A DNA stretch of 64,000 nt from Candidatus Latescibacterota bacterium (lineage in GTDB: Bacteria > Latescibacterota > UBA2968): the NCBI GenBank assembly GCA_965116885.1, contig OZ220741.1:3840001-3904000 (forward strand). Reading direction: 5' to 3'. Shown here piece by piece: positions 7,276-28,458 of the stretch. Both the position numbers and the translations under genes were made by a program. Every line of letters begins with the position of its first letter. Position 1 is the first letter of the stretch. The notes beneath the pieces were generated by a model. That model made no database searches. It saw only the letters and a list, made by a program, of their open reading frames with translations, and was not told the origin of the DNA.

Positions 7276-7352
7276 CGAGGTGTGGCTCAGTCCGGTAGAG
7301 CACCTGCTTTGGGAGCAGGGGGCCGGGGGTTCAAATCCCTCCACCTCGACCA
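7276..7352 (+). tRNA. tRNA-Pro(TGG)
   Basis: Acceptor CGAGGTG/CACCTCG, anticodon arm CCTGC-TTTGGGA-GCAGG, T-loop TTCAAAT, encoded CCA. Confidence 0.97.
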
Positions 7353-7404: not shown

Positions 7405-7447
7405 AAAGAAAAAGCGCCTGTGCAAAATCGCACAAGCGCTTTCTTTT
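7405..7447 (-). terminator. Hairpin terminator, probably the original tRNA-Gln terminator displaced by the island
   Basis: AAAGCGCCTGTGC / GCACAAGCGCTTT stem with A/T runs on both sides, adjacent to the duplicated tRNA-Gln 3' end at 7448-7457. Confidence 0.6.
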
Positions 7448-7449
7448 TT

Positions 7450-7911
7450 GGTTGCCCGATAGATGCATTCACTGAACGTTTCTGTGTGTGGGATAACTTC
7501 CCCATCCACCACTTCCGCAGGAACAAGAAGCCCATAATCGCAATCGGACAGAAAAAGAAAAAACAATTGGTCACTCAAAAATTGCACCATCCCAATTATC
7601 TCAAAAGGGCCATGTATTATCACGAGCTTCTTGAAAAGGGCCACGTTCAATCTCAGAGGGCACTTGCGAAACATGTGGGAATTTCGCAACCCAAAATTCA
7701 CCTGATTCTACAGATGCTCAAACTGGATGAAGAAATTAAGGATTTTATCTTGAAGATAGATGACACAGACCCAGGGCTACGTTTCCTGACTGCCTATCGG
7801 TTGCAGCCGTTATTCCAGGTTAAGAGCAAGGAGAGACAAAGAAGGAAATTTTGGAAAATGATTGGGGAGCAATATCCAGGCCAAAGGGCCTGTGAGCAGG
7901 TTGGGCTATGA
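7450..7911 (+). CDS. HTH-containing C-terminal segment of a large serine recombinase, separated from its N-terminal part by integration; possible internal ATG at 7612
   Basis: LKRAMYYHELLEKGHVQSQRALAKHVGISQPKIHLILQMLKLDEEIKDFIL resembles the C-terminal HTH of island serine recombinases; the frame is open from the att core. Confidence 0.6.
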   Translation, partial: GCPIDAFTERFCVWDNFPIHHFRRNKKPIIAIGQKKKKQLVTQKLHHPNYLKRAMYYHELLEKGHVQSQRALAKHVGISQPKIHLILQMLKLDEEIKDFILKIDDTDPGLRFLTAYRLQPLFQVKSKERQRRKFWKMIGEQYPGQRACEQVGL

Positions 7912-7945
7912 ATTGATGGCTGAATAAAATAGATTGATCTTTTTC

Positions 7946-7990
7946 AAATGGGCGATATATTGTCTTTATTGGATGATATATCGCCCATTT
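7946..7990. repeat. Perfect 15-bp inverted repeat with 15-nt loop
   Basis: AAATGGGCGATATAT ... ATATATCGCCCATTT. Confidence 0.85.
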
Positions 7991-8088
7991 TATTTCTACA
8001 AAAATAGATGAGAGAAATGACATGTTTCATTGACAAGAGTTGCGGCCACAACTGCGGACTACCTCGTGCTGTATGTGAATCGCGATAT

Positions 8089-8149
8089 GGATGGTACAGG
8101 ATGATTGGGATGAACCTTCTACATTATCCACGAAAGCGGAGTAACTCCA
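8089..8149 (+). mobile_element. Partial mini-element (right end), IS3-like terminus family
   Basis: Ends TCCACGAAAGCGGAGTAACTCCA; the preceding ~40 bp are homologous to 9757-9806. Confidence 0.7.
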
Positions 8150-8180
8150 AAGTTTCATCTTAACTCGCTTATCGCATACC

Positions 8181-8264
8181 TTGTGCCGATAGCTTACGCA
8201 AAATTGCACCAAACACAGGCTTGAACCTAGGCCCTAAATACCCCACCAAAACGGGGTAACTCCA
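8181..8264 (+). mobile_element. Partial mini-element (right end), IS3-like terminus family
   Basis: Ends CCCACCAAAACGGGGTAACTCCA; the preceding ~60 bp are homologous to 16017-16077. Confidence 0.75.
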
Positions 8265-8478
8265 GCAGCACCAGTGCTCCGAGCACAATGTGGAGATCTT
8301 TACTGGGGCGCCCAAAGTCTTTGCTGAAATGGGGTGCCAGTTCCCCAACAGGTAGCTCCGAAAGCAGATACTCTCGGAAGACGCCAGCCCAGGAATGATC
8401 AAGGAGTTGCTTGCGTTTGGCCCCCAGGCTGTATCCAGAAATCCGGTGGGGACGCCGAATCGCGGTCTCGTAAGGTAA
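8265..8478 (+). pseudogene. Possible GC-richer gene fragment truncated by the mini-element
   Basis: Reading frame begins at the repeat end, has one TAG at 8353-8355 and ends TAA at 8476-8478; no recognised family. Confidence 0.25.
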
Positions 8479-8675
8479 GCATAAACGAAAGATAGCTCAC
8501 CTTACCCTTCGTGACAATCTCTGACTTTTTGCCGTCCCGTCAAATGTCGTGGATGATCCAGACGCATCAACTCATAAAATCATTACGGTTCTAGCTCATT
8601 GGACTTGACCATGATTTAAAATCTACAGAATTTATAGTTGAACAAAATGAATTTACACTCTAAAGGAGGTATAAC

Positions 8676-9077
8676 ATGGCTAACATGGCCCCATTTTTCC
8701 AAGAATTTTATTCTCAACATCTTGAAGAGTATCTGGGCGGCCAAGATGGTGATACGATAAATATAGTTAATGAAGCTATTGACTATGCAGTAGATCGTTT
8801 GGAAAACCGAAAAGTGCTTCGTTCAGATGCACGGCTGTTCCTAACAATTAACCTGCACGAAATTGTCGCGATACCTTTATCTCAACAGAATTCTCCAACG
8901 AGATTGACTGCTGATATTGTAGGGGAACTCAGAGAAGATACATACAGAATCCTTCAGGCTGCTTCGTTACGCGCAGGAAATAGAGAGGAATTGGCAGCGT
9001 CACACATAGTATGGGGTTTAGCATTTGTTCTAGACGATTTAAATTTAAAGAATTGGAGATTTTGGGACCCCATATAA
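8676..9077 (+). CDS. Hypothetical all-helical protein, possible histone-like fold
   Basis: Strong AAAGGAGGT RBS; 133 aa; segments resemble archaeal histone alpha2/L2/alpha3 (fold call speculative). Confidence 0.75.
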   Translation: MANMAPFFQEFYSQHLEEYLGGQDGDTINIVNEAIDYAVDRLENRKVLRSDARLFLTINLHEIVAIPLSQQNSPTRLTADIVGELREDTYRILQAASLRAGNREELAASHIVWGLAFVLDDLNLKNWRFWDPI

Positions 9078-9149
9078 GAGCCATAGGAATAAGTTATGCC
9101 CCGCGATATAAACGATTAAATTTAGAGGCTTAGAGGCTTTGAGACTGCA

Positions 9150-9653
9150 ATGAATGATAAAGATACTATAAGACTTGAAATATGGAAGATGCTCTTCTCG
9201 GTCGCAATTGGCTTAATTGTAGCCTCAACAACTTTTATTGTATATGCATTCAAAAAACCGTCTCTTGGTCCAGCCTTCTGGATATTGTTCGGGATTGGCA
9301 TGGCGGCCCTTTTTATGAGTTGCATTTTGGGCAGTAAAGGGGCATCGCGTATCCCAAATCCAGGCAATTTATTCAATTTACAGGCGTTGTGTTGTGCGGC
9401 CGGATTCTTTCTTCTTGCTATCAGCTTTATCTTTTTGGCTAAACCGACAGAAAACAACACTGTAATTTCAATTATCGGGCTACCAAAAGACTCAGAGCAA
9501 GCTGGCCACATTGTCCAGATACTAGACATAGAGAAATTCTATGAGATCATTACAAGGCTCGAAGCTGTGGAGCAAGATCTGGAAGATTTGCAGAAAAAGT
9601 TCTCGAAAAAAGAAGTAGTGTTGCCTGATACAGCTACTGTATCAGGGCATTGA
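9150..9653 (+). CDS. Hypothetical membrane protein (3 TM helices plus C-terminal coiled coil)
   Basis: Three hydrophobic stretches, then the heptad-like EIITRLEAVEQDLEDLQKK. Confidence 0.7.
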   Translation: MNDKDTIRLEIWKMLFSVAIGLIVASTTFIVYAFKKPSLGPAFWILFGIGMAALFMSCILGSKGASRIPNPGNLFNLQALCCAAGFFLLAISFIFLAKPTENNTVISIIGLPKDSEQAGHIVQILDIEKFYEIITRLEAVEQDLEDLQKKFSKKEVVLPDTATVSGH

Positions 9654-9699
9654 TCTATCGGATAGTCTTGATATTATGCTCTGTCGTAGCGATTTTGCT

Positions 9700-9954
9700 T
9701 GGACTTACCCCGTTTTGGTGTATAACACTATCAATCGTCCATCACCTATGAAAAACGGATGGCAAAGGTTGAGGGGGTTGAAATTTCTACACTATCCACC
9801 AAAGCGATGCTGTTGCCGAATTCTGAATTCTGTCTTGATGCAACTAAACATATAGGGCTTACAGAGCCTGAATTCAGGCCACAAGCAACCGTTTTTCCAA
9901 CCGCAGACTCCCCTCAACCAATTCGGCAACAATATCTAAAACGGGGTAACTTCA
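9700..9954 (+). mobile_element. Fused tandem of two mini-elements with IS3-like termini
   Basis: Left end TGGACTTACCCCGTTTTGGTG (9700), internal partial end TCCACCAAAGCG (9795-9806), right end AAAACGGGGTAACTTCA (9954). Confidence 0.8.
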
Positions 9955-10026
9955 TGATTGTATAGAGTACTAAGAGGCAGGTTACAAGTAATAGGAGATA
10001 ACCACAACAAAGTAAGGAGAAATCAG

Positions 10027-10674
10027 ATGCCAAGTTTTGAAATAAACCTTAAGTGTTTTGAATTTCCTCAGAATTTGAAAGATGAATACGCAAACTTTAG
10101 ATTTGCAGTTGAATTACGATTTTTCAATGCAAGCGGTAAACTTGTCACAAAGGAGACTGTAATACCGAGTTTGGAAACTTTTTGGGAATGTGACACAGGT
10201 GAACAAGACGCACAGAATTACGTACGTGCAACCAATGACGATGGGAAATCCATCAACAAATTTGATATGAATAAAATTGGTGTGTGGGACAGCTTAATCT
10301 TTCATATACCTGACATAAAAAGGCTTCATTCTATTAAATTTACTGTCTTTGACGTAAATCGAGAAGACATATGGAATAAGGCAGAAGGCTTATTAGGTAA
10401 AACCGTTGGAACCGCATTTGATGTAGTTACTGGTTCAGTTTTTAAGAAATTGCCATCTGCTTTATCTTCAATTGTTAAGTCAGACGAAGAAGTTATGAGT
10501 GATTTAGAGTCTGCCTTAATAAAGAAGATCACAGGAGGCGATGGTGACAAGATTCTATTTAGAAAATCAAAAGCATTAGATGAAATAAACTCTGAAGATA
10601 ATTTAACATTAACTGGTAAAGGTAAATATGGAGATTACGCGATAGGTATTGAAGTGAAGGAATATCCCGAGTGA
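10027..10674 (+). CDS. Hypothetical protein, possible C2-like beta sandwich with a helical insertion
   Basis: AAGGAGA RBS; WDSLIFHI...SIKFTVFDVNRED pattern recalls C2 domains (speculative). Confidence 0.7.
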   Translation: MPSFEINLKCFEFPQNLKDEYANFRFAVELRFFNASGKLVTKETVIPSLETFWECDTGEQDAQNYVRATNDDGKSINKFDMNKIGVWDSLIFHIPDIKRLHSIKFTVFDVNREDIWNKAEGLLGKTVGTAFDVVTGSVFKKLPSALSSIVKSDEEVMSDLESALIKKITGGDGDKILFRKSKALDEINSEDNLTLTGKGKYGDYAIGIEVKEYPE

Positions 10675-10690
10675 GGGTAAGCTTCACAAC

Positions 10691-10843
10691 TGGAGTTACC
10701 CCGCCCCATATTGTCCAAGAGGGATCTGCGGTTAAAAAGATAGCTGTTTGTGGCCTGATTTCAGGCTCTACAAGCCCTATGTTTAGTTGCATCGAGAACA
10801 GTATTCGGAATTCGGCAACAGCATCCAAAGCGGGGTAACTCCA
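10691..10843 (-). mobile_element. Complete 153-bp MITE-like element
   Basis: Perfect 14-bp terminal inverted repeats TGGAGTTACCCCGC / GCGGGGTAACTCCA; body is an inverted homolog of 9806-9954. Confidence 0.85.
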
Positions 10844-10997
10844 GAGAGACAAAGAAGGAAATTAAGGAAACGTCAATTTCTTGACAGTGGCGCAGAGATT
10901 TTTTCTGGCAATGATACAGTTGAAACGTATGAGGCACGCCTTTCCAATCCTGTGCTAAACGTCCAGGCAAAAATCGTCCGATTATCGGAGAACTAAT

Positions 10998-11735
10998 GTG
11001 TTAACCCTTAAAAGAAACATTAATGTATTGATTGACTATGACAACGTATCACATATTGACCCCCAGAAAGGATTGAATCACGTAGTTAAGTCGATTTTGG
11101 AAAAGCTCCCTAAAGGCATGTTACCTCACGGCACATATATTGCAGTTCGTCTTTATGGTGGCTGGTATAGATCAAGTCAATTGTCGCGACGTGCCCAAGA
11201 CCTAAGCATCCAAATCAGTCGTCACTACCCGGGTACTCTCTCTTTAGATACCGCCAATATGCGCCGTGTGTTCGTCTTCGTGGAGTTGGCTCGGAGCCTT
11301 TTAGTTGATCCTTCACAGGATATTTTAAACACATATAGAGTGAGGGGTGTACCTAGCAACCTGCGCCCTAAGGCATTTCCGTTCCAAGCTTGTACTCAAA
11401 CTCAAAACGCTCTGTGTCCACTCGCTGGTGCTCACACACTCCTTCAAACCGGCACATGCCCTAATTCCTCATGTGGGGTAAAAATCGCTGATGTAATTAC
11501 TCGACATGAACAGAAGCTAGTTGACACGATGCTTACGGCCGATTTGATTCACGTTGCATCTTCGAGCGCATCGGACATTGTCGTGGTTTCCAATGATGAT
11601 GACCTTTGGCCGGGAATTCGTACAGCTATATCTCTAGGAGCTTTTGTTCATCACATTCATCCTCAAAAGGGGCGTAGCACACCTACTTACTACTCCTCAA
11701 CAGTAAAAAAAAATTATTCTCAATATTCTTTTTAA
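10998..11735 (+). CDS. NYN domain (LabA/DUF88, PIN-like) ribonuclease with a Cys-rich insertion
   Basis: VLIDYDNV, EQKLVDTMLTADL, VVVSNDDDLWP acidic motifs; CTQTQNALC...CPNSSC insertion. Confidence 0.8.
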   Translation: MLTLKRNINVLIDYDNVSHIDPQKGLNHVVKSILEKLPKGMLPHGTYIAVRLYGGWYRSSQLSRRAQDLSIQISRHYPGTLSLDTANMRRVFVFVELARSLLVDPSQDILNTYRVRGVPSNLRPKAFPFQACTQTQNALCPLAGAHTLLQTGTCPNSSCGVKIADVITRHEQKLVDTMLTADLIHVASSSASDIVVVSNDDDLWPGIRTAISLGAFVHHIHPQKGRSTPTYYSSTVKKNYSQYSF

Positions 11736-11747
11736 GGCGGCGATTTT

Positions 11748-14006
11748 ATGAATATAGATGATCTAAAAAAAATTCTGATTGCCTTCGCTGATAGTGAAGC
11801 AGATTTAGAGATGGTTGGTAATGTGTTGGTATTTCAGATTAGAGACGAGATCATAGAAGTGTCTGTCGAACAACATAAAGGTAATCTGTTTATTACCGAA
11901 AACGGAGAAAGAAACAGTGCGTATTCCTGGTTGATAAACCGTGTAGCGAGAATTCCACAACTCGCGGATAGATTACTAGATAATGTTCCTTTCGAGCCAC
12001 ATTTTATATCACCTTCTGGAATGCTACTAGATCAAATTGATGCCAATCCAGAGGACATAGAAAAGAAAGTTGAGGATGTTGCTAACCAAATACCAGATCT
12101 TTTATCTCCCCAAACAGTAGGAACGTCGACGGTTCTCTATTTAACCTCCGATGCGGGTGAGGGGAAGACCACACTCATCAATCGGATAGCGCGAAATCAA
12201 GCACAACTTTACAAGGACCAGAAGACGGACTGGTTACTGATTCCAATCAGCCTTGGCGGACGTTCCTTCTTGACATTCGATGATATTGTAGTTGCAGAGC
12301 TCGTAAACAGGTTACGCTTCCAGTTTTTTTATTATAACGCATTCTTGGAACTAGTGAAACTGGGGGTACTGGTTCCCGCTTTCGATGGCTTTGAAGAGAT
12401 GTTCGTTGAAGGATCATCAGGAGAGGCGTTATCAGCATTGGGGAACCTGATGAATTCTCTCGATTCATCCGGAACAGCTCTAATTGCCGCAAGAAAGGCA
12501 TACTTTGAGTATAGGAACTTCGCTACCCAAGCTAGACTGTTTGATGCTATTCGAGATAGATCAGTTTCTTTTGCTAATATTAAGCTCAATAGGTGGGATC
12601 GAAAACGTTTTCTTAGTTATGCGGAGAGAAGAAACCTTTCAGATAGAGAAACGATATACCATAAAGTTCGTACACGATTAAAACCTGATCATCCTTTGTT
12701 GACCCGAGCGGTCTTGGTAAAACGGCTAGTGGAGGAGGCACAAGATGGAAATGTTGATACTCTACTTGACCGTCTCGGGACTACTCCTGAAGACTACTTC
12801 TTTCAGTTTGTTAATACGCTTGTCGAACGAGAATCTCGCGAAAAGTGGATAGATCGTTCTGGTACACCCCATCAATCTCTGCTGACAACTGAAGAACACC
12901 ATGCGCTACTAGCACTAGTGGCAAAGGAGATGTGGATATCCTCAAGCGAAGTACTCAAAGGAGACTATTTAGATCTGATTGGAGAGTTATTCGCTAGTGA
13001 GATCGGAAAACCAACAGTGATTTTACGTCAAATTGTCAATCGTATCAGGCAGCACTCATTAATTGTTTCTGAGAATGAGGAGTCGTATGCATTTGACCAT
13101 GAAGATTTTCGTAAATTTTATCTCGGGGAGGCATTAGGTACTACGTTGCTAGCAAATGATGATAGGGACATAATTGGGTTTCTGGAAAAGGGGTCTTTGC
13201 CACAGCAAACCTGTGATGCGGCACTATATATGGTAAAGAGGAATGCTGGCGATCTTGGTAAAGTCCTTCGGATTCTCCAGTCGTTGGTCAATTCAAGTGC
13301 TCCCCCATCTTACGTTGTGGAGAATGCGGCATCCATGGTTATAAGATTGCTTGAGTTGCTTACCGGTGATAAGGAAGTTGTCATTAAAGAATTTACGTTT
13401 GCTAGTGATGCCCTTAAGGACCGGAGATTTGGTGAAGTTACATTTGAAGGCTGTCTCTTTCAAGAGACATCTCTCGAGAACACGCATATCAGTAGATGTC
13501 AATTTAGACGGTGTACGATATATCAGTTAGAAATTCCGAGTGACTTTCGGACGGAAGGCACAATAATCGAAGATACTGAGATTTTAGGTATAACTCGTCC
13601 TGGCGAATTGCGTGGCATATATGATCCCGAAAGGATTTGCGAAGAGCTTACTTCGGTAGGATTTGAAGTAAAGAGTATTGAGAACCACGTGACGGTACAA
13701 CAACCAGTATCTGAGGCAGATGAAGATACCCTTCTTGCGGAGCGCGCGCTCAGGGCGTTTATGAGGGCAACGCAAATCAATGAGGGCGTATTCCGACAGA
13801 AGTTTGGTAGAGATGCTAACCGATTCATGGAAATAATTTTGCCGAAGATGATCGGCAAAGAAATTCTTCAGGAGGTTCCATACAGGGGGGGCGGGGCGCA
13901 ACGACGCTTTGGAATATGTGTTCCTATGAGTAATATTGAAGCAGCGGTACCGACGACTTTGGGGTCATTAGATGAGTTTTTGTCATCGGTAAAGCATGGA
14001 GCATAA
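11748..14006 (+). CDS. NACHT/STAND-like NTPase with a pentapeptide-like repeat region
   Basis: Walker A SDAGEGKTT, Walker B LVPAFDGFEE, HPLL, winged-helix FDHEDFRKFYLG, beta-helix-like VTFEGCLFQETSLENTHISRCQFRRCTI. Confidence 0.8.
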   Translation: MNIDDLKKILIAFADSEADLEMVGNVLVFQIRDEIIEVSVEQHKGNLFITENGERNSAYSWLINRVARIPQLADRLLDNVPFEPHFISPSGMLLDQIDANPEDIEKKVEDVANQIPDLLSPQTVGTSTVLYLTSDAGEGKTTLINRIARNQAQLYKDQKTDWLLIPISLGGRSFLTFDDIVVAELVNRLRFQFFYYNAFLELVKLGVLVPAFDGFEEMFVEGSSGEALSALGNLMNSLDSSGTALIAARKAYFEYRNFATQARLFDAIRDRSVSFANIKLNRWDRKRFLSYAERRNLSDRETIYHKVRTRLKPDHPLLTRAVLVKRLVEEAQDGNVDTLLDRLGTTPEDYFFQFVNTLVERESREKWIDRSGTPHQSLLTTEEHHALLALVAKEMWISSSEVLKGDYLDLIGELFASEIGKPTVILRQIVNRIRQHSLIVSENEESYAFDHEDFRKFYLGEALGTTLLANDDRDIIGFLEKGSLPQQTCDAALYMVKRNAGDLGKVLRILQSLVNSSAPPSYVVENAASMVIRLLELLTGDKEVVIKEFTFASDALKDRRFGEVTFEGCLFQETSLENTHISRCQFRRCTIYQLEIPSDFRTEGTIIEDTEILGITRPGELRGIYDPERICEELTSVGFEVKSIENHVTVQQPVSEADEDTLLAERALRAFMRATQINEGVFRQKFGRDANRFMEIILPKMIGKEILQEVPYRGGGAQRRFGICVPMSNIEAAVPTTLGSLDEFLSSVKHGA

Positions 14007-14076
14007 TAACAATGGTCTTTTACAATCAATACGGCGGACAATTTGTGTAAGCCGTTAATGAAAAATTTAGGCAAAA

Positions 14077-14146
14077 TGGAGTTATGGAGGTATCCCGTTT
14101 TGGTGGATCATATCATAAATCACCCATCACTTATGAAAAACTGATG
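14077..14146 (+). mobile_element. Partial mini-element (left end), IS3-like terminus family
   Basis: TGGAGTTA followed by TGGAGGTATCCCGTTTTGGTGGA; the next ~40 bp are homologous to 9723-9761. Confidence 0.75.
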
Positions 14147-14181
14147 TTAGTTTTTCGTCTATGGAGAGGAGAGATAAGAGT

Positions 14182-15945
14182 ATGCCTAAATTGATTACTG
14201 ATAGCCAAGATGAGCAAACACTTGAAGAGTTATTTAGGGATGCAGATCAAATTCATATCCCTATCTTCCAAAGATCTTATATCTGGAAGCAAAAGCAATT
14301 AGATGAATTACTGGGAGATATTCGATTAATTAGATCTGAAGTGGAGGAATCTCAATTTCTTGGTGCAATTGTAGCTTATGAGAGGCCACGCGACACCCAA
14401 ATTGTGGGCAGATTGAGAGCATTGGCTGTTGTTGATGGACAGCAACGGCTTCTTACACTTTATATTTTTGTTATGTGCTTAGTTGAATGTGTTGCAGGTA
14501 TCGATAAAGAGGAGGGGCTAGAGATAGTTCGCGAATTTCTCCTCCTTCCGACTCGGCGAGGGTTAGATATAAATACGCGAGTGATTCCTGCATTTTCAGA
14601 TAGAAGTCAATTCAGAGTACTTTGGGATCGCCTTAACAGTCCAGACGTCCTTCAAGGTCATTTCGCCCCCCCCCCAAACCCTCCACCTCCAAGCGGTGAG
14701 GCTGCTGGCGCACTCGTTAAACAGTATAATCGAATACTCAGATTTTTACGTAGCTCATTGCCAGAGGAAAAAAATAAAAGAATAGAATTTCTTCGCGAGA
14801 TCCTTGATATAATTACACGCCGATTGACCTTTGTTCATTTGAAACTAAACGATGCCTCTTCAGCGACCAAAATTTTTGAGAGGTTAAATTTCCGAGGTGT
14901 TAGGGTTGGGATAGTAGACCTTGTGAGAAATGAGATATTTTCTGGGACCGCAGATGATCCCACTGAAGCCCAGAGAATTTTTGATCATGTATGGCGGCCT
15001 TTCGAGACAGAATTTGAGGGAAGATCAGAGGCGTTTTTCTTTCCATATTGCCTTGTTCAAAACAGCAATATTAAAAAGTCAGAATTGTTTTCACAACTCC
15101 GAGAAACGTGGAAATCGCTAAGTCCTGAAGAGATGGTGGAACATATGAAGCCATTTCAAGGGCCCTTTATGAGCATAGACAGCACTGGTTATTACTCTGG
15201 GTGTTCCGAAATTTCGATGCGCTTAGACCGCCTTGTCAGAATGCGAAGGCCCTCATCTGTTTATCCTTATGTAATGTCCATGCTACACGCAAGAGATAAT
15301 GAAGAGATCAATGATGATCAATGTATTGATATGCTTGATGCACTTGAAACCTTTTTAGTAAGAAGGGCAATTGTTGGATTTGAACCAACTGGTCTGCATG
15401 CTCTATTCAAAGGACTCTGGGTACAACTCCCCGAACATAATTCGACAGGGTTCGTATCTATTGTTACCGAAAAACCTACGATTCAGTGGCCAAGTGATAA
15501 CGATTTGATCGAGGCAATTGAAAACCGCCCATTAGCAAGAACGCATATTTGCAATTATCTTCTTGTTGAATACGATAAAGGCCTAAAAGGTGATGACCCC
15601 ATTACTACTCCAACGATTGAGCATATATTGCCTGTGTCGTATGATACTAATAGTGAATGGTCTGATTTATTTTCTAGAGATCAACATAAAAAATTGAAAG
15701 ATACTTGGGCAAATTTAATTCCGTTATCTTCGCCCATGAACTCCTCGCTACAGGCAGATCCATATTCACAGAAACGTCCGAGATATGGAAACGAATCAAT
15801 GTTTATCACTCCGCGAGATATAGCTGACAGGTGGGAAGATTGGACGCCATATAGCATTGAGGAAAGAGCACAAATCCTTACCGCCTGGGCAATCGCACGC
15901 TGGCCACATACTCTACCTAATTCAGCAGACAACGTCGAATCTTAG
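14182..15945 (+). CDS. DUF262-DUF1524 protein (GmrSD-like type IV restriction endonuclease family)
   Basis: IPIFQRSYIW, VVDGQQRL, IFERLNFRG (DUF262); TIEHILP...WANLIPLSSPMNSSL (HNH-like DUF1524). Confidence 0.9.
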   Translation: MPKLITDSQDEQTLEELFRDADQIHIPIFQRSYIWKQKQLDELLGDIRLIRSEVEESQFLGAIVAYERPRDTQIVGRLRALAVVDGQQRLLTLYIFVMCLVECVAGIDKEEGLEIVREFLLLPTRRGLDINTRVIPAFSDRSQFRVLWDRLNSPDVLQGHFAPPPNPPPPSGEAAGALVKQYNRILRFLRSSLPEEKNKRIEFLREILDIITRRLTFVHLKLNDASSATKIFERLNFRGVRVGIVDLVRNEIFSGTADDPTEAQRIFDHVWRPFETEFEGRSEAFFFPYCLVQNSNIKKSELFSQLRETWKSLSPEEMVEHMKPFQGPFMSIDSTGYYSGCSEISMRLDRLVRMRRPSSVYPYVMSMLHARDNEEINDDQCIDMLDALETFLVRRAIVGFEPTGLHALFKGLWVQLPEHNSTGFVSIVTEKPTIQWPSDNDLIEAIENRPLARTHICNYLLVEYDKGLKGDDPITTPTIEHILPVSYDTNSEWSDLFSRDQHKKLKDTWANLIPLSSPMNSSLQADPYSQKRPRYGNESMFITPRDIADRWEDWTPYSIEERAQILTAWAIARWPHTLPNSADNVES

Positions 15946-15948
15946 AAA

Positions 15949-16100
15949 TGGACTTGCCCCGTTTTGGTGGATAATTTATATAATCCTCATCGCAGACATT
16001 CTTCCATTGCCTACTATGCACCGATGGCCTGCGAAAAGCTGCATCAATCACAGGGTTGAAACACAAGCCCTACACTCTCCACCGAAGCGGGGTAACTCCA
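15949..16100 (+). mobile_element. Complete 152-bp MITE-like element
   Basis: Termini TGGACTTGCCCCGTTTTGGTGGA and TCCACCGAAGCGGGGTAACTCCA; starts 3 bp after the GmrSD-like stop codon. Confidence 0.85.
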
Positions 16101-16432
16101 TCGCTGGACGCAAGGTTGGTATCAAAACCATCGGTCAGAAAATTATCGACCTGGAAGACCAAAAAGAACAAATAGAACAGGAGATGATGGATAATGAATC
16201 AATTCTCGCGGAGCTAAAGCAAAAGGCCGTAAGTGTTGCTCAGATGGCGCAAAAACTTACGACCTTTGAGGAATTATTTGATGAAGCCACACCAGAGGAA
16301 CGGAAAGACCTGTTAAGGCTACATATCAACCACCTGATCTATACCCCTGATGCTATTCAACTGGCCTTGTTTGATTCTGCCAATGAAACGGACAGAATCA
16401 AAGTTCAGCGAGAAGATGTAGTTGGTTGCCCC
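16101..16432 (+). pseudogene. C-terminal coiled-coil remnant of a large serine recombinase reading into the att site
   Basis: IGQKIIDLEDQKEQIEQEM...FEELFDEATPEERKDLLRLHINHLIY pattern; no start or catalytic domain, cut at the MITE end; frame continues antisense through the tRNA to TAA at 16516. Confidence 0.7.
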
Positions 16433-16496
16433 TCAGGGATTCGAACCCCGATACCTGGAACCAAAATCCAGTGTCTTGCCATTAGACGAAGGGGCA
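16423..16496 (-). tRNA. tRNA-Gln(TTG)
   Basis: Acceptor TGCCCCT/AGGGGCA, anticodon arm CTGGA-TTTTGGT-TCCAG, TTCGAAT T-loop, CCA. Confidence 0.96.
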
Positions 16497-16515
16497 ATAC
16501 TGTGTCGCAGGGCTA

Positions 16516-16544
16516 AATATAAATTTTTAGCCGATTACTGGCAA
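16516..16544 (-). promoter_or_regulatory. Sigma70-type promoter of tRNA-Gln
   Basis: TTGCCA-N17-TATATT on the minus strand. Confidence 0.65.
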
Positions 16545-27015: not shown

Positions 27016-28458
27016 TCAAATCGCGCCTTTAGGGACGCCTTTGCCGACGTGGGGGAGTAAGCCCTGGATTGGTTGCCCGGGCACGAGTTTTCCATTCTGG
27101 ACAAATCCCTCTGGGCGCCCTGTGAGTTCCTCGATCAGTTGATTGCGCCACCAGGCCAATCGGTCGGGGCGATCGCTGGACAGGTCGTTGATTTCGCGGG
27201 GGTCTTCGGTTAGATCAAAGAGCAATTCTCTTCCCGTCTGGGTAAACCAGGCATACTTCTCCTTGCCGTCCGTAAGCCACTGATTGGCTGATGTTGCATG
27301 TTCCCCGTGGATGAACGGACGCCAATTATTTCCGCCACAATTCAGTACACTCTCCCCGTCGAGATCGTCCGGGGTGTCGATTCCCGCGATGTCACAGAAG
27401 GTGGGGAAGATGTCCCGCAGTTCTACCGGCGATTCTACGAGGGATCCGCGTTCCGTAGTGCCAGATGTTTTGGGCATTCGCAGGATGAAGGGCACGCGAG
27501 CGGAGCCGTCATAGGGCACGCCTTTTCCCACATGGTTGTGATCGTAGAGCATTTCACCGTGATCCGCAGTGAAGAGTATGGCCGTGTTGTCCTGAACACC
27601 GTATTCGTTGAGTGCCATAATCATGCGATTGATCTGGAAATCGATGTGTGAGATCTGTGCGTAATACGCTCTTCGGGCAAAGGCCACCAGCGCTGGGTCT
27701 CGTGGGATAGGGCTGTCGTGCCCGCCCCTGCGGAGTTCGTGGTCAACCCAGTTTCCCATGGCGGGTGGGGGAATGTCTTTTTGCAAATAGCGATTCAAGA
27801 AAGACGCGGGCGGGTCCAGCGGCGGATGGGGCCGGTGGTAGGATAGCGTGAGGAAGAAGGGCTTGGATGTGTCGCGCCTGCGCAAAAAGTCAATGCCCTG
27901 AGAGGTAACCCAACTCGTGGGGTGAAGCATTTCGTGGTAGGGCCAGGCTTGCGCCGCGTATCCATTGCATCCCACGCCAGAGTCGTTGTGATCGGCATAG
28001 ACCGCGCCGAGTTTTTCCCGAAGCCAGGGGGTGTAATCGTCGTTCAATCCAAATTCGCGGTTTTCTCGCCGGGCGCGATGCATATAGCCGTCGTGCAGTA
28101 CGACGTTGTGAAAACCCACGAGATTGCGCCAGGGATAGACGTGCATTTTGCCGACGCACTGGGTGTGATAACCCGCATCTGACAGGGTCCCGGGAAGTGT
28201 TACTGGATAGTCCCATTGCACGCCGCCGTTGGTGAGATATCCGTGGCGCTTGGGGGCGAGACCGGTGAGGATTGTGGCGCGGGCAGCAACGCATACCGGG
28301 CACGAGGCATACGCCTGGGTAAATGTGATACCCTCGCCTGCCAGATAATCCAGATGGGGGGTTTCAACTGCGGGATGACCGGTATAGCCCAGGCAATCCC
28401 CTCGCCATTGATCGGTCAGGATAAAGAGTATATTGGGAGTGTTTTCGGTTGTTGGCAT
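27016..28458 (-). CDS. Cys-type sulfatase
   Basis: CVAARATILTG, VGKMH, ADHGEM. Confidence 0.92.
   Translation of the reverse strand: MPTTENTPNILFILTDQWRGDCLGYTGHPAVETPHLDYLAGEGITFTQAYASCPVCVAARATILTGLAPKRHGYLTNGGVQWDYPVTLPGTLSDAGYHTQCVGKMHVYPWRNLVGFHNVVLHDGYMHRARRENREFGLNDDYTPWLREKLGAVYADHNDSGVGCNGYAAQAWPYHEMLHPTSWVTSQGIDFLRRRDTSKPFFLTLSYHRPHPPLDPPASFLNRYLQKDIPPPAMGNWVDHELRRGGHDSPIPRDPALVAFARRAYYAQISHIDFQINRMIMALNEYGVQDNTAILFTADHGEMLYDHNHVGKGVPYDGSARVPFILRMPKTSGTTERGSLVESPVELRDIFPTFCDIAGIDTPDDLDGESVLNCGGNNWRPFIHGEHATSANQWLTDGKEKYAWFTQTGRELLFDLTEDPREINDLSSDRPDRLAWWRNQLIEELTGRPEGFVQNGKLVPGQPIQGLLPHVGKGVPKGAI

Follow-up and report, generated by a model that had tools for sequence, protein, structure and literature searches.

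A probable tRNA-targeting island family whose large serine recombinase gene is divided by its own attachment site

Introduction

Large serine integrases are valued as tools for their strictly one-way action, which takes a separate factor to reverse. In mycobacteriophage BPs the attachment (att) site reportedly lies inside the repressor gene, giving two protein lengths according to integration state, and the integrase is said to be a tyrosine recombinase. The TnpX gene of Tn4451/Tn4453, which encodes a large serine recombinase (LSR), is reportedly completed only in the circle, and Mx8 is said to target a tRNA gene. Here we describe an island at a tRNA-Gln gene in a 64,000-nucleotide stretch of a Candidatus Latescibacterota genome (contig OZ220741.1). 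The whole stretch is referred to as the window, and positions are numbered from its first letter. The island is probably a decayed member of a family in which attP lies inside the LSR gene, with the consequence that integration divides the gene.

Attachment sites within integrase genes have been described elsewhere. According to PMC6070905, the integrase coding sequence of Mx8 contains attP, and the recombinant gene that integration creates has a changed 3′ end and altered properties; PMC8371274 likewise places attP of archaeal SSV-type integrases inside the integrase gene. A search of the literature outside subscription journals found no description of a serine integrase with attP in its own open reading frame (ORF), with a C-terminal ParB helix-turn-helix (HTH) or with a tRNA 3′-end target, and the word tRNA occurs 0 times in the main text of a large LSR survey (PMC10083194).

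Results

The core repeat is read in the same frame at both island ends

An exact sequence search of the window found the direct repeat TTGGTTGCCC at 7448–7457 and at 16422–16431, with the right copy covering the 3′ end of tRNA-Gln, CCA included. Both copies had been reported in a preliminary description of the window, made from its letters alone, as an att core within a serine recombinase gene, and both were recovered as described. The island between them, 8,974 bp in length and situated between tRNA-Pro and tRNA-Gln, is bordered by an intact tRNA on one side and by a repeat of the tRNA 3′ end on the other, and it shows a shift in composition: GC content falls from 0.52–0.55 outside to 0.39–0.45 between approximately 7400 and 16400 (window composition profile), and the shift coincides with the TTGGTTGCCC copies. 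The features at the two ends are:

7448–7457, plus strand: attL core, duplicate of the tRNA-Gln 3′ end (repeat search; sibling loci)
7450–7911, plus strand: tail ORF, open over 153 codons counted from the first codon of the core, stop at 7909–7911
16100–16421, plus strand: 3′ remnant of an LSR gene, approximately residues 408–515 of a 546-residue relative
16422–16431, plus strand: attR core (repeat search)
16423–16496, minus strand: tRNA-Gln(ttg), the integration target (ARAGORN)
16424–16516, plus strand: 30-codon antisense-tRNA-Gln tail of the integrated-state recombinase, with stop (ORF reading)

At the left core, GGT at 7450 begins a codon of an ORF that reads GCPIDAFTERF... to the stop at 7909–7911; at the right core, GGT at 16424 begins a codon of an ORF that reads ...KVQREDVVGCPSGIRTP... 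to a stop at 16514–16516. The proposal that each core is read in the frame of its adjacent ORF, from GGT in both cases, thus holds. By chance TTGGTTGCCC is expected 0.20 times per window, and three copies occurred in 0 of 100 shuffles. A third exact copy lies at 27069–27078, within an ORF of 480 residues on the minus strand; neither a tRNA nor element features lie nearby, and this copy is best taken as chance. Because this chance-like copy exists, the 10-mer repeat is by itself weak evidence, and it is the comparative data that carry the case.

A recombinase remnant on the right and a ParB-type HTH on the left

The right-hand ORF represents the last ~107 codons of an LSR. A protein homology search returned 38 relatives, 35 of them LSRs with PF00239, PF07508 and/or PF13408; the LSR relatives are 69–92% identical to the window fragment over 90–100% of its length. 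Most relatives are 520–553 residues long, and the full-length ones carry Resolvase, Recombinase and Zn_ribbon domains. For one of them, P0005, the match in the window is confined to residues 408–546 (tblastn), and the window copy is without the Resolvase catalytic domain, the Recombinase domain and the zinc ribbon. On the evidence of its sequence the gene at 16100–16516 is a remnant of an LSR family member, not a working member. The preliminary description had already stated that the catalytic 5′ part was deleted, which agrees with the extent of the P0005 match and with a break that abuts an insertion sequence (IS)-type repeat; its start for the fragment, 16101, requires a small correction to the in-frame 16100 or 16103, position 16100 being the last base of the IS-type inverted repeat.

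The left-hand ORF, referred to below as the tail, consists of a linker with a β-hairpin (codons 1–46) followed by a ParB-type HTH domain that matches Pfam HTH_ParB PF17762 with 29 bits against a cut-off of 22.6; the HTH originally noticed in this ORF falls within the match. Pfam detected no N-terminal ParB/Srx CTP-binding domain in the tail at E ≤ 0.1, and its domains identify the tail as an HTH module rather than a ParB. Modelled alone, the tail reached a predicted local distance difference test score (pLDDT) of 85.5, with a β-hairpin at residues 19–32 followed by helices, and its nearest folds in the PDB were Noc, ParB and Spo0J, at template-modelling (TM) scores of 0.47–0.51 with weak E-values of at least 2e-3. 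Searches with the tail gave one generic ParB match in a plasmid collection, no match in a phage collection and no match in PADLOC.

One codon phase joins recombinase and tail across five tRNA targets

An integrated form ending in an antisense-tRNA tail, as the preliminary description had read it, is present in the window and recurs among the relatives of the remnant, 35 of 38 of which end in antisense-tRNA tails of five kinds, always in the same phase. The C-termini of the 38 relatives are distributed as follows:

4 of 38: antisense tRNA-Gln(TTG), the window's own tail
9 of 38: antisense tRNA-Gln(CTG)
8 of 38: antisense tRNA-Asn
5 of 38: antisense tRNA-Met, first type
9 of 38: antisense tRNA-Met, second type
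1 of 38: fused to an HTH tail
2 of 38: broken upstream

The antisense-tRNA-Gln tail of the window is identical to that of P0004, P0005, P0006 and P0010. In every tRNA-tailed relative the codon on the GG complementary to CCA is Gly and the next is Cys or Ser.

For the opposite end of the island, sibling loci were collected by a genome scan with P0037, a fused protein described below, as query. The scan gave 22 loci (L001 onwards; 21 Latescibacterota metagenome-assembled genomes (MAGs) and 1 Poribacteria MAG). Its recombinase-side patterns were too specific, missing most recombinase ends and leaving one intact end pair that could be matched. Tail ends from the scan together with the window formed a set of 17, and in all 17 the tail begins with an 8-nucleotide core in one codon phase. 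The core-plus-tail junction thereby recurs in 16 further loci, beside matching tRNA types. The cores at these tail ends are:

8-nucleotide cores (n = 17): GGTTGCCC in 7, GGTAGCCC in 3, AGTAGCCC in 3, GGCTCCCC in 3, GGTCGCCC in 1

The attL core of the window is GGTTGCCC, the same core that lies 5′ of 7 of the 17 tail ORFs in all. Core codons vary with the target (GCP, GSP, SSP and GRP). The preliminary description had set the frame across att as a check, and this frame is not random: one phase is kept in the 17 tail ORFs and the 35 tRNA-tailed recombinases, over five tRNA targets.

Tail ORFs are open for 140–167 codons from the core in 16 of 17 cases. Six of the 17 tail ends have no in-frame ATG, GTG or TTG between the last stop and the core, and among the first 70 tail codons none of start type is conserved, the best being a TTG at codon 40 in 8 of 15. 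The ratio of nonsynonymous to synonymous substitution (dN/dS), pooled over 105–120 non-independent pairs of related copies, was 0.23–0.24 for linker codons 1–46 and 0.20 for the HTH. As a control for frame, the same 138 nucleotides were read in all three frames over 15 rows, leaving out L017 (indel) and L021 (truncation); the ratio was 0.23 in frame versus 1.36 and 1.82 in the other two. Because the tail is translated yet begins at the element edge without a start, it needs an upstream partner, and such a partner is supplied only by a circular or attP-type arrangement.

Natural proteins are contiguous across the core

A single relative, P0190, is a 658-residue protein encoded by one ORF with Resolvase, Recombinase, Zn_ribbon_recom and HTH_ParB domains. 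It is 56% identical to P0005 over residues 1–503. The two window pieces are collinear on it, the recombinase fragment at residues 414–503 and the tail at 523–657, with 35–47% identity, and the tail alignment begins exactly at the core codons (GSP in P0190, GCP in the window). P0037 is encoded by a Latescibacterota chromosomal fused remnant (L001) in which the last 73 recombinase codons are joined to a tail, with 77% identity to the recombinase piece of the window and 72% to its tail. Both pieces thus align collinearly to a natural ORF, P0190, and also to P0037, which answers the question of contiguity raised at the outset.

An LSR C-terminus lies upstream of the tail in 5 of the 150 tail-relative representatives listed. 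The preliminary remark that a similar HTH ends some of the serine recombinases of islands is supported here by one full-length protein and five fragments. A word-based search for the P0190 tail region at recombinase-like lengths returned P0190 itself and no other protein, which is a weak negative.

The only intact end pair that could be matched is in phase. It comprises the tail of L004 and the full recombinase with tRNA-Asn of L016, ~22 kb apart on one contig, and GGC TCC stands in the same phase at both ends. Judged from the contiguous forms and the antisense-tRNA tails, the att site lies inside the recombinase ORF, and integration alters its C-terminus.

The arms around the core resemble those of LSR att sites

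Inverted motifs flank the core on the element side, and a further motif is contributed by the tRNA:

16403–16408, plus strand: GTTCAG, outer motif of the P arm, inverted partner of 7472–7477, 15 nucleotides before the core GG
7472–7477, plus strand: CTGAAC, outer motif of the P′ arm, 14 nucleotides after the 8-nucleotide core
16441–16446: TCGAAC from the tRNA-Gln T-arm, 9 nucleotides after the core

GTTCAG was present 15 nucleotides 5′ of the core at all 8 recombinase-side ends, and CTGAAC 14 nucleotides 3′ of the 8-nucleotide core at 16 of 17 tail-side ends; both are codons of conserved protein motifs, KVQ and TEL respectively. In all 10 tRNA-side arms, T[CT]GAAC of the tRNA T-arm is found 9 nucleotides 3′ of the core, 5 bp nearer the centre. 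The point about which the arms are symmetrical lies within the 8-nucleotide core, at its 4th base, as seen in the natural junction of L001. In PMC11722253 the outer (DBD2) motif of LSR sites is described as lying ~5 bp nearer the centre in attB than it does in attP. To judge from motif spacing, the arms around the core fit this LSR attP/attB pattern. Inspection by eye gave no convincing motif in the terminator-side (left) attB arm. Reliance on the T-arm would account for the range of five tRNA genes that a single family targets.

The tail is predicted to pack on the recombinase

Co-folding of the tail with residues 160–520 of P0005 gave a score of 0.72, the best of 3 controls scoring 0.00. In the benchmark, 116 of 157 solved complexes attained this mark, as did 2 of 215 mismatched pairs. 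Agreement between runs was at least 76% of contacts, with a partner pLDDT of at least 76. The predicted interface is formed by residues 343–377 (a helix) and 491–500 of the LSR and by residues 11–21 and 27–32 (the hairpin) of the tail. The two chains are parts of a single gene and were aligned by us without pairing, and the score may derive from fused relatives known to the model; as a prediction, it is a measure of likeness to a single folded unit, not of binding in the cell.

Flanks, insertion-sequence remnants and cargo

The features outside the recombinase and tail are:

7276–7352, plus strand: tRNA-Pro(tgg), chromosomal flank left of the island (ARAGORN)
7409–7444, minus strand: intrinsic terminator, B arm of attB, now in attL (terminator scan: 16-pair stem, T-rich tail)
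7946–7990, plus strand: terminator after the tail ORF (terminator scan)
8676–15945, plus strand: cargo region (ORF list, Pfam, PADLOC)
8676–9077 and 9150–9653, plus strand: cargo ORFs without assignment
10998–11735, plus strand: NYN-domain ORF, 245 residues
11748–14006, plus strand: P-loop/pentapeptide-repeat ORF, 752 residues
14161–15945, plus strand: GmrSD-type restriction enzyme
15949–16100, no strand assigned: IS-derived element, 152 bp, with inverted-repeat ends, abutting the recombinase break (repeat comparison)
16225–16264, plus strand: hairpin inside the recombinase coding sequence (KQKAVSVAQ...QKLTT), −17.9 kcal/mol, z −3.2
8128–8149, 8243–8264, 9700–9721, 10822–10843, 14085–14106, 15949–15970 and 16079–16100: inverted-repeat copies

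The same tRNA-Pro is found upstream of the tail ends in L008 and L009. The hairpin that the preliminary description had placed beside the left core is real, with its stem running from 7444 to 7409 on the minus strand and followed by a T-run, and an equivalent hairpin and T-run lie 5′ of the core in sibling loci. It is because of its minus strand that the hairpin is assigned as the tRNA-Gln terminator, which would directly follow tRNA-Gln in the unoccupied site; a tRNA-Gln terminator stranded at attL is what insertion at the tRNA 3′ end predicts.

The ~22-nucleotide inverted-repeat end, of the TGGA...GGTGG type, occurs as seven copies scattered in the island. The repeats also delimit a 1,144-bp unit (9700–10843) that encloses an unassigned 238-residue ORF, and the same inverted repeat is present in L002, L004, L017 and L022. 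Pfam gave no match for the 37-residue peptide inside the 152-bp element, which may resemble the C-terminus of an rve-type transposase. The hairpin at 16225–16264 is a recurrent left edge of recombinase remnants in the siblings and lies at most 130 nucleotides upstream of 6 of the 17 tail ends; it may act as a terminator, a deletion hotspot or a binding site.

When the main island ORFs were scanned with Pfam, none matched a tyrosine integrase. PADLOC gave no match for five of the six cargo ORFs, the NYN and P-loop/pentapeptide pair included; these two ORFs, beside the GmrSD-type enzyme, are a possible undescribed defence pair.

Sibling elements

Cargo varies among the siblings and includes a methylase-HNH fusion, RadC, PIN, an AbiC-like protein, a Type ISP restriction enzyme and HigB/HTH pairs. 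In four siblings it occupies the following regions, in which no conjugation or phage structural genes were seen:

Sibling cargo regions: L004, 10844–20417; L016, 384–8102; L017, 3660–10342; L010, 10516–16977

Several siblings are without a recombinase (L010 10001–17168, L003 10001–17722, L006 10004–12072, L018 ~14400–14491). They keep the tail, and their tRNA end consists of the last ~35 nucleotides of the recombinase, which form the P arm, or of the hairpin plus the arm. L009 and L018 share a deletion edge, ..GCAGAGCC/AAAACAAAAGG.., in different contexts. Recombinase-less siblings look like non-autonomous derivatives that could be mobilised in trans.

Tandem remnant arrays with chromosomal attP-type junctions are found at one tRNA in L001 (10001–13245), L020 (10001–12678) and L002 (5907–10471). 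The fused ORF of L001, which encodes P0037, has gained an ATG right after the stop of a Doc-like gene. Tandem arrays are puzzling for a serine integrase, which should not take attR as a target.

Discussion

We consider it likely that the island is a decayed member of a tRNA-targeting LSR island family in which attP lies inside the recombinase ORF and the gene is split by integration. The comparisons above demonstrate how the gene is built, that its frame is conserved, that selection acts on the tail protein from the first core codon onwards, that contiguous forms exist in nature and that the att arms are of the LSR type; they support the structural reading of the preliminary description, in which two recombinase isoforms exist according to integration state. 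These small integrative islands have so far been found almost only in Latescibacterota genomes. In the proposed mechanism, attP would sit in a linker ~150 codons before the stop, and the circular form would encode an enzyme of ~690 residues comprising the LSR domains, a short β-hairpin linker and the ParB-type HTH. Integration would cut the gene at the core, leaving at the tRNA a complete conventional LSR extended by 7–40 antisense-tRNA codons, and at the far end of the island a hairpin-plus-HTH tail with no start codon of its own; excision would restore the HTH domain to the enzyme. The window copy cannot move by itself, because the first ~405 recombinase codons have been lost beside the IS-derived element.

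If an incoming circle makes only the long form, the long form must be the one that integrates, and if an integrated element makes only the short form, excision would use the short form. The swap of isoforms would then be a marker of state that could set direction or activity; a directionality switch had been put forward in the preliminary description as a possibility. It could set direction, could weaken the enzyme as in Mx8, or could be neutral if a free tail acts in trans. One possible, tentative extension is that the covalent presence or absence of the hairpin and ParB-type HTH is itself the directionality control, the long form acting on attP × attB and the short form on attL × attR; a serine integrase of this kind would carry its direction in the structure of its gene and dispense with a separate directionality factor. 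Under such control the enzyme family might also be retargeted among tRNA genes through changes to a few linker codons, since the motif on the tRNA side is the near-universal one of the T-arm.

Several observations weigh against a split gene whose tail functions as part of the recombinase. Neither a circle junction nor an empty tRNA-Pro/tRNA-Gln site was found among the 22 scanned loci, and P0190 is the single full-length fusion found among 5.8 billion clustered proteins. P0190 itself, on a contig of 3,173 nucleotides, may represent a tandem-array junction rather than a circle, and its AlphaFold2 model is poor (mean pLDDT 64, predicted TM score 0.35, and below 50 for residues 482–531, the junction) and gives no information on the packing of the tail. 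In the fused junctions seen in DNA (L001, L002b, L004, L012 and L013) the recombinase part is always truncated or internally deleted. The pairs behind the dN/dS values are, as stated, not independent. Tail ORFs are moreover intact where the recombinase has been lost (the window, L003, L006 and L010); intact tails in recombinase-less elements would agree as well with a tail that acts independently, and this is the main point against a role confined to the fusion.

It is also conceivable, if unlikely, that att lies inside the gene and the split has no regulatory meaning, the tail being made in the integrated state as well, through chance upstream starts or read-through, and either binding the short recombinase non-covalently, which would give one two-part enzyme in both states, or acting as an excision factor. 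Such a free tail agrees with the intact tails of recombinase-less elements, with the separate-chain co-fold of tail and LSR, which passed (score 0.72; best of three controls, 0.00), and with the presence of some in-frame start upstream of the core at 11 of the 17 tail ends, ATG 7402 in the window among them. These upstream starts, however, sit in unrelated flanking DNA, are not conserved and are absent from 6 of the 17; the minus-strand terminator hairpin and, in the window, the tRNA-Pro terminator separate any host promoter from the tail, and no ribosome-binding site was identified for a free tail.

A reading of the HTH ORF as an ordinary separate gene, for example a regulator, with the open frame and the fusions arising as by-products of tandem arrays and of the attP arm, seems quite improbable. 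The 150 listed tail relatives are short (51–364 residues), 145 of them without a recombinase part, and chromosomal fusions such as L001 lie in tandem remnant arrays, all of which would agree with it. Against it, coding conservation is frame-specific from the first post-core codon and extends well past the ~25 bp that an att arm needs, no start is conserved for a separate HTH gene, the phase is identical over five tRNA targets, and P0190 is an intact 658-residue ORF with the same GSP junction at only 35–47% identity to the window pieces. That the 10-bp repeat is a chance match, with other island boundaries or another integrase, is close to refuted: an unrelated third copy of the 10-mer does occur at 27069, but the core-plus-tail junction is found in 16 further loci at matching tRNAs, the GC shift falls at the repeats, and Pfam gave no tyrosine-integrase match.

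If division of the recombinase gene by att is correct, an integration event that rewrites the C-terminus of the enzyme would link its direction or activity in a new way to the element's state. The family would also show a conserved tRNA T-arm serving as half of the target, which would allow hopping between at least five tRNA genes, and it would be a vehicle for defence and toxin–antitoxin cargo in a phylum known mostly from metagenomes.

Among described systems, the island resembles Mx8, where intP becomes intX on integration, in having att in the integrase gene and a 3′ end changed by integration. Mx8 uses a tyrosine recombinase, whereas here an LSR exchanges a whole ParB-type HTH domain together with a hairpin predicted to pack on the enzyme. 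Likewise, the SSV-type ('suicidal') integrases of Sulfolobales viruses and plasmids have attP within the integrase gene; they are archaeal tyrosine recombinases and the cut disrupts the enzyme, whereas here the tRNA-side part is a complete conventional LSR. The relatives of the island carry the serine-recombinase Resolvase domain, and the island is not a member of the Mx8 or SSV families. The principle of an att site inside the integrase gene would thus extend from tyrosine recombinases (Mx8 and the archaeal SSV type) to the unrelated serine family, and its presence in both points to convergent evolution. With phiC31, Bxb1, SPbeta and LI/A118 the full-length relatives share the same domain set, short att sites, inverted arms and an attB motif 5 bp nearer the centre; unlike these integrases as described in the literature searched, which use a separate directionality factor, the present family has attP in the ORF, a C-terminal ParB HTH and a tRNA 3′-end target. 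In BPs the gene that is split is reportedly the repressor, and in the window family it is the integrase; in TnpX the joint of the circle is said to create a promoter, whereas in the window family it would create a C-terminal domain.

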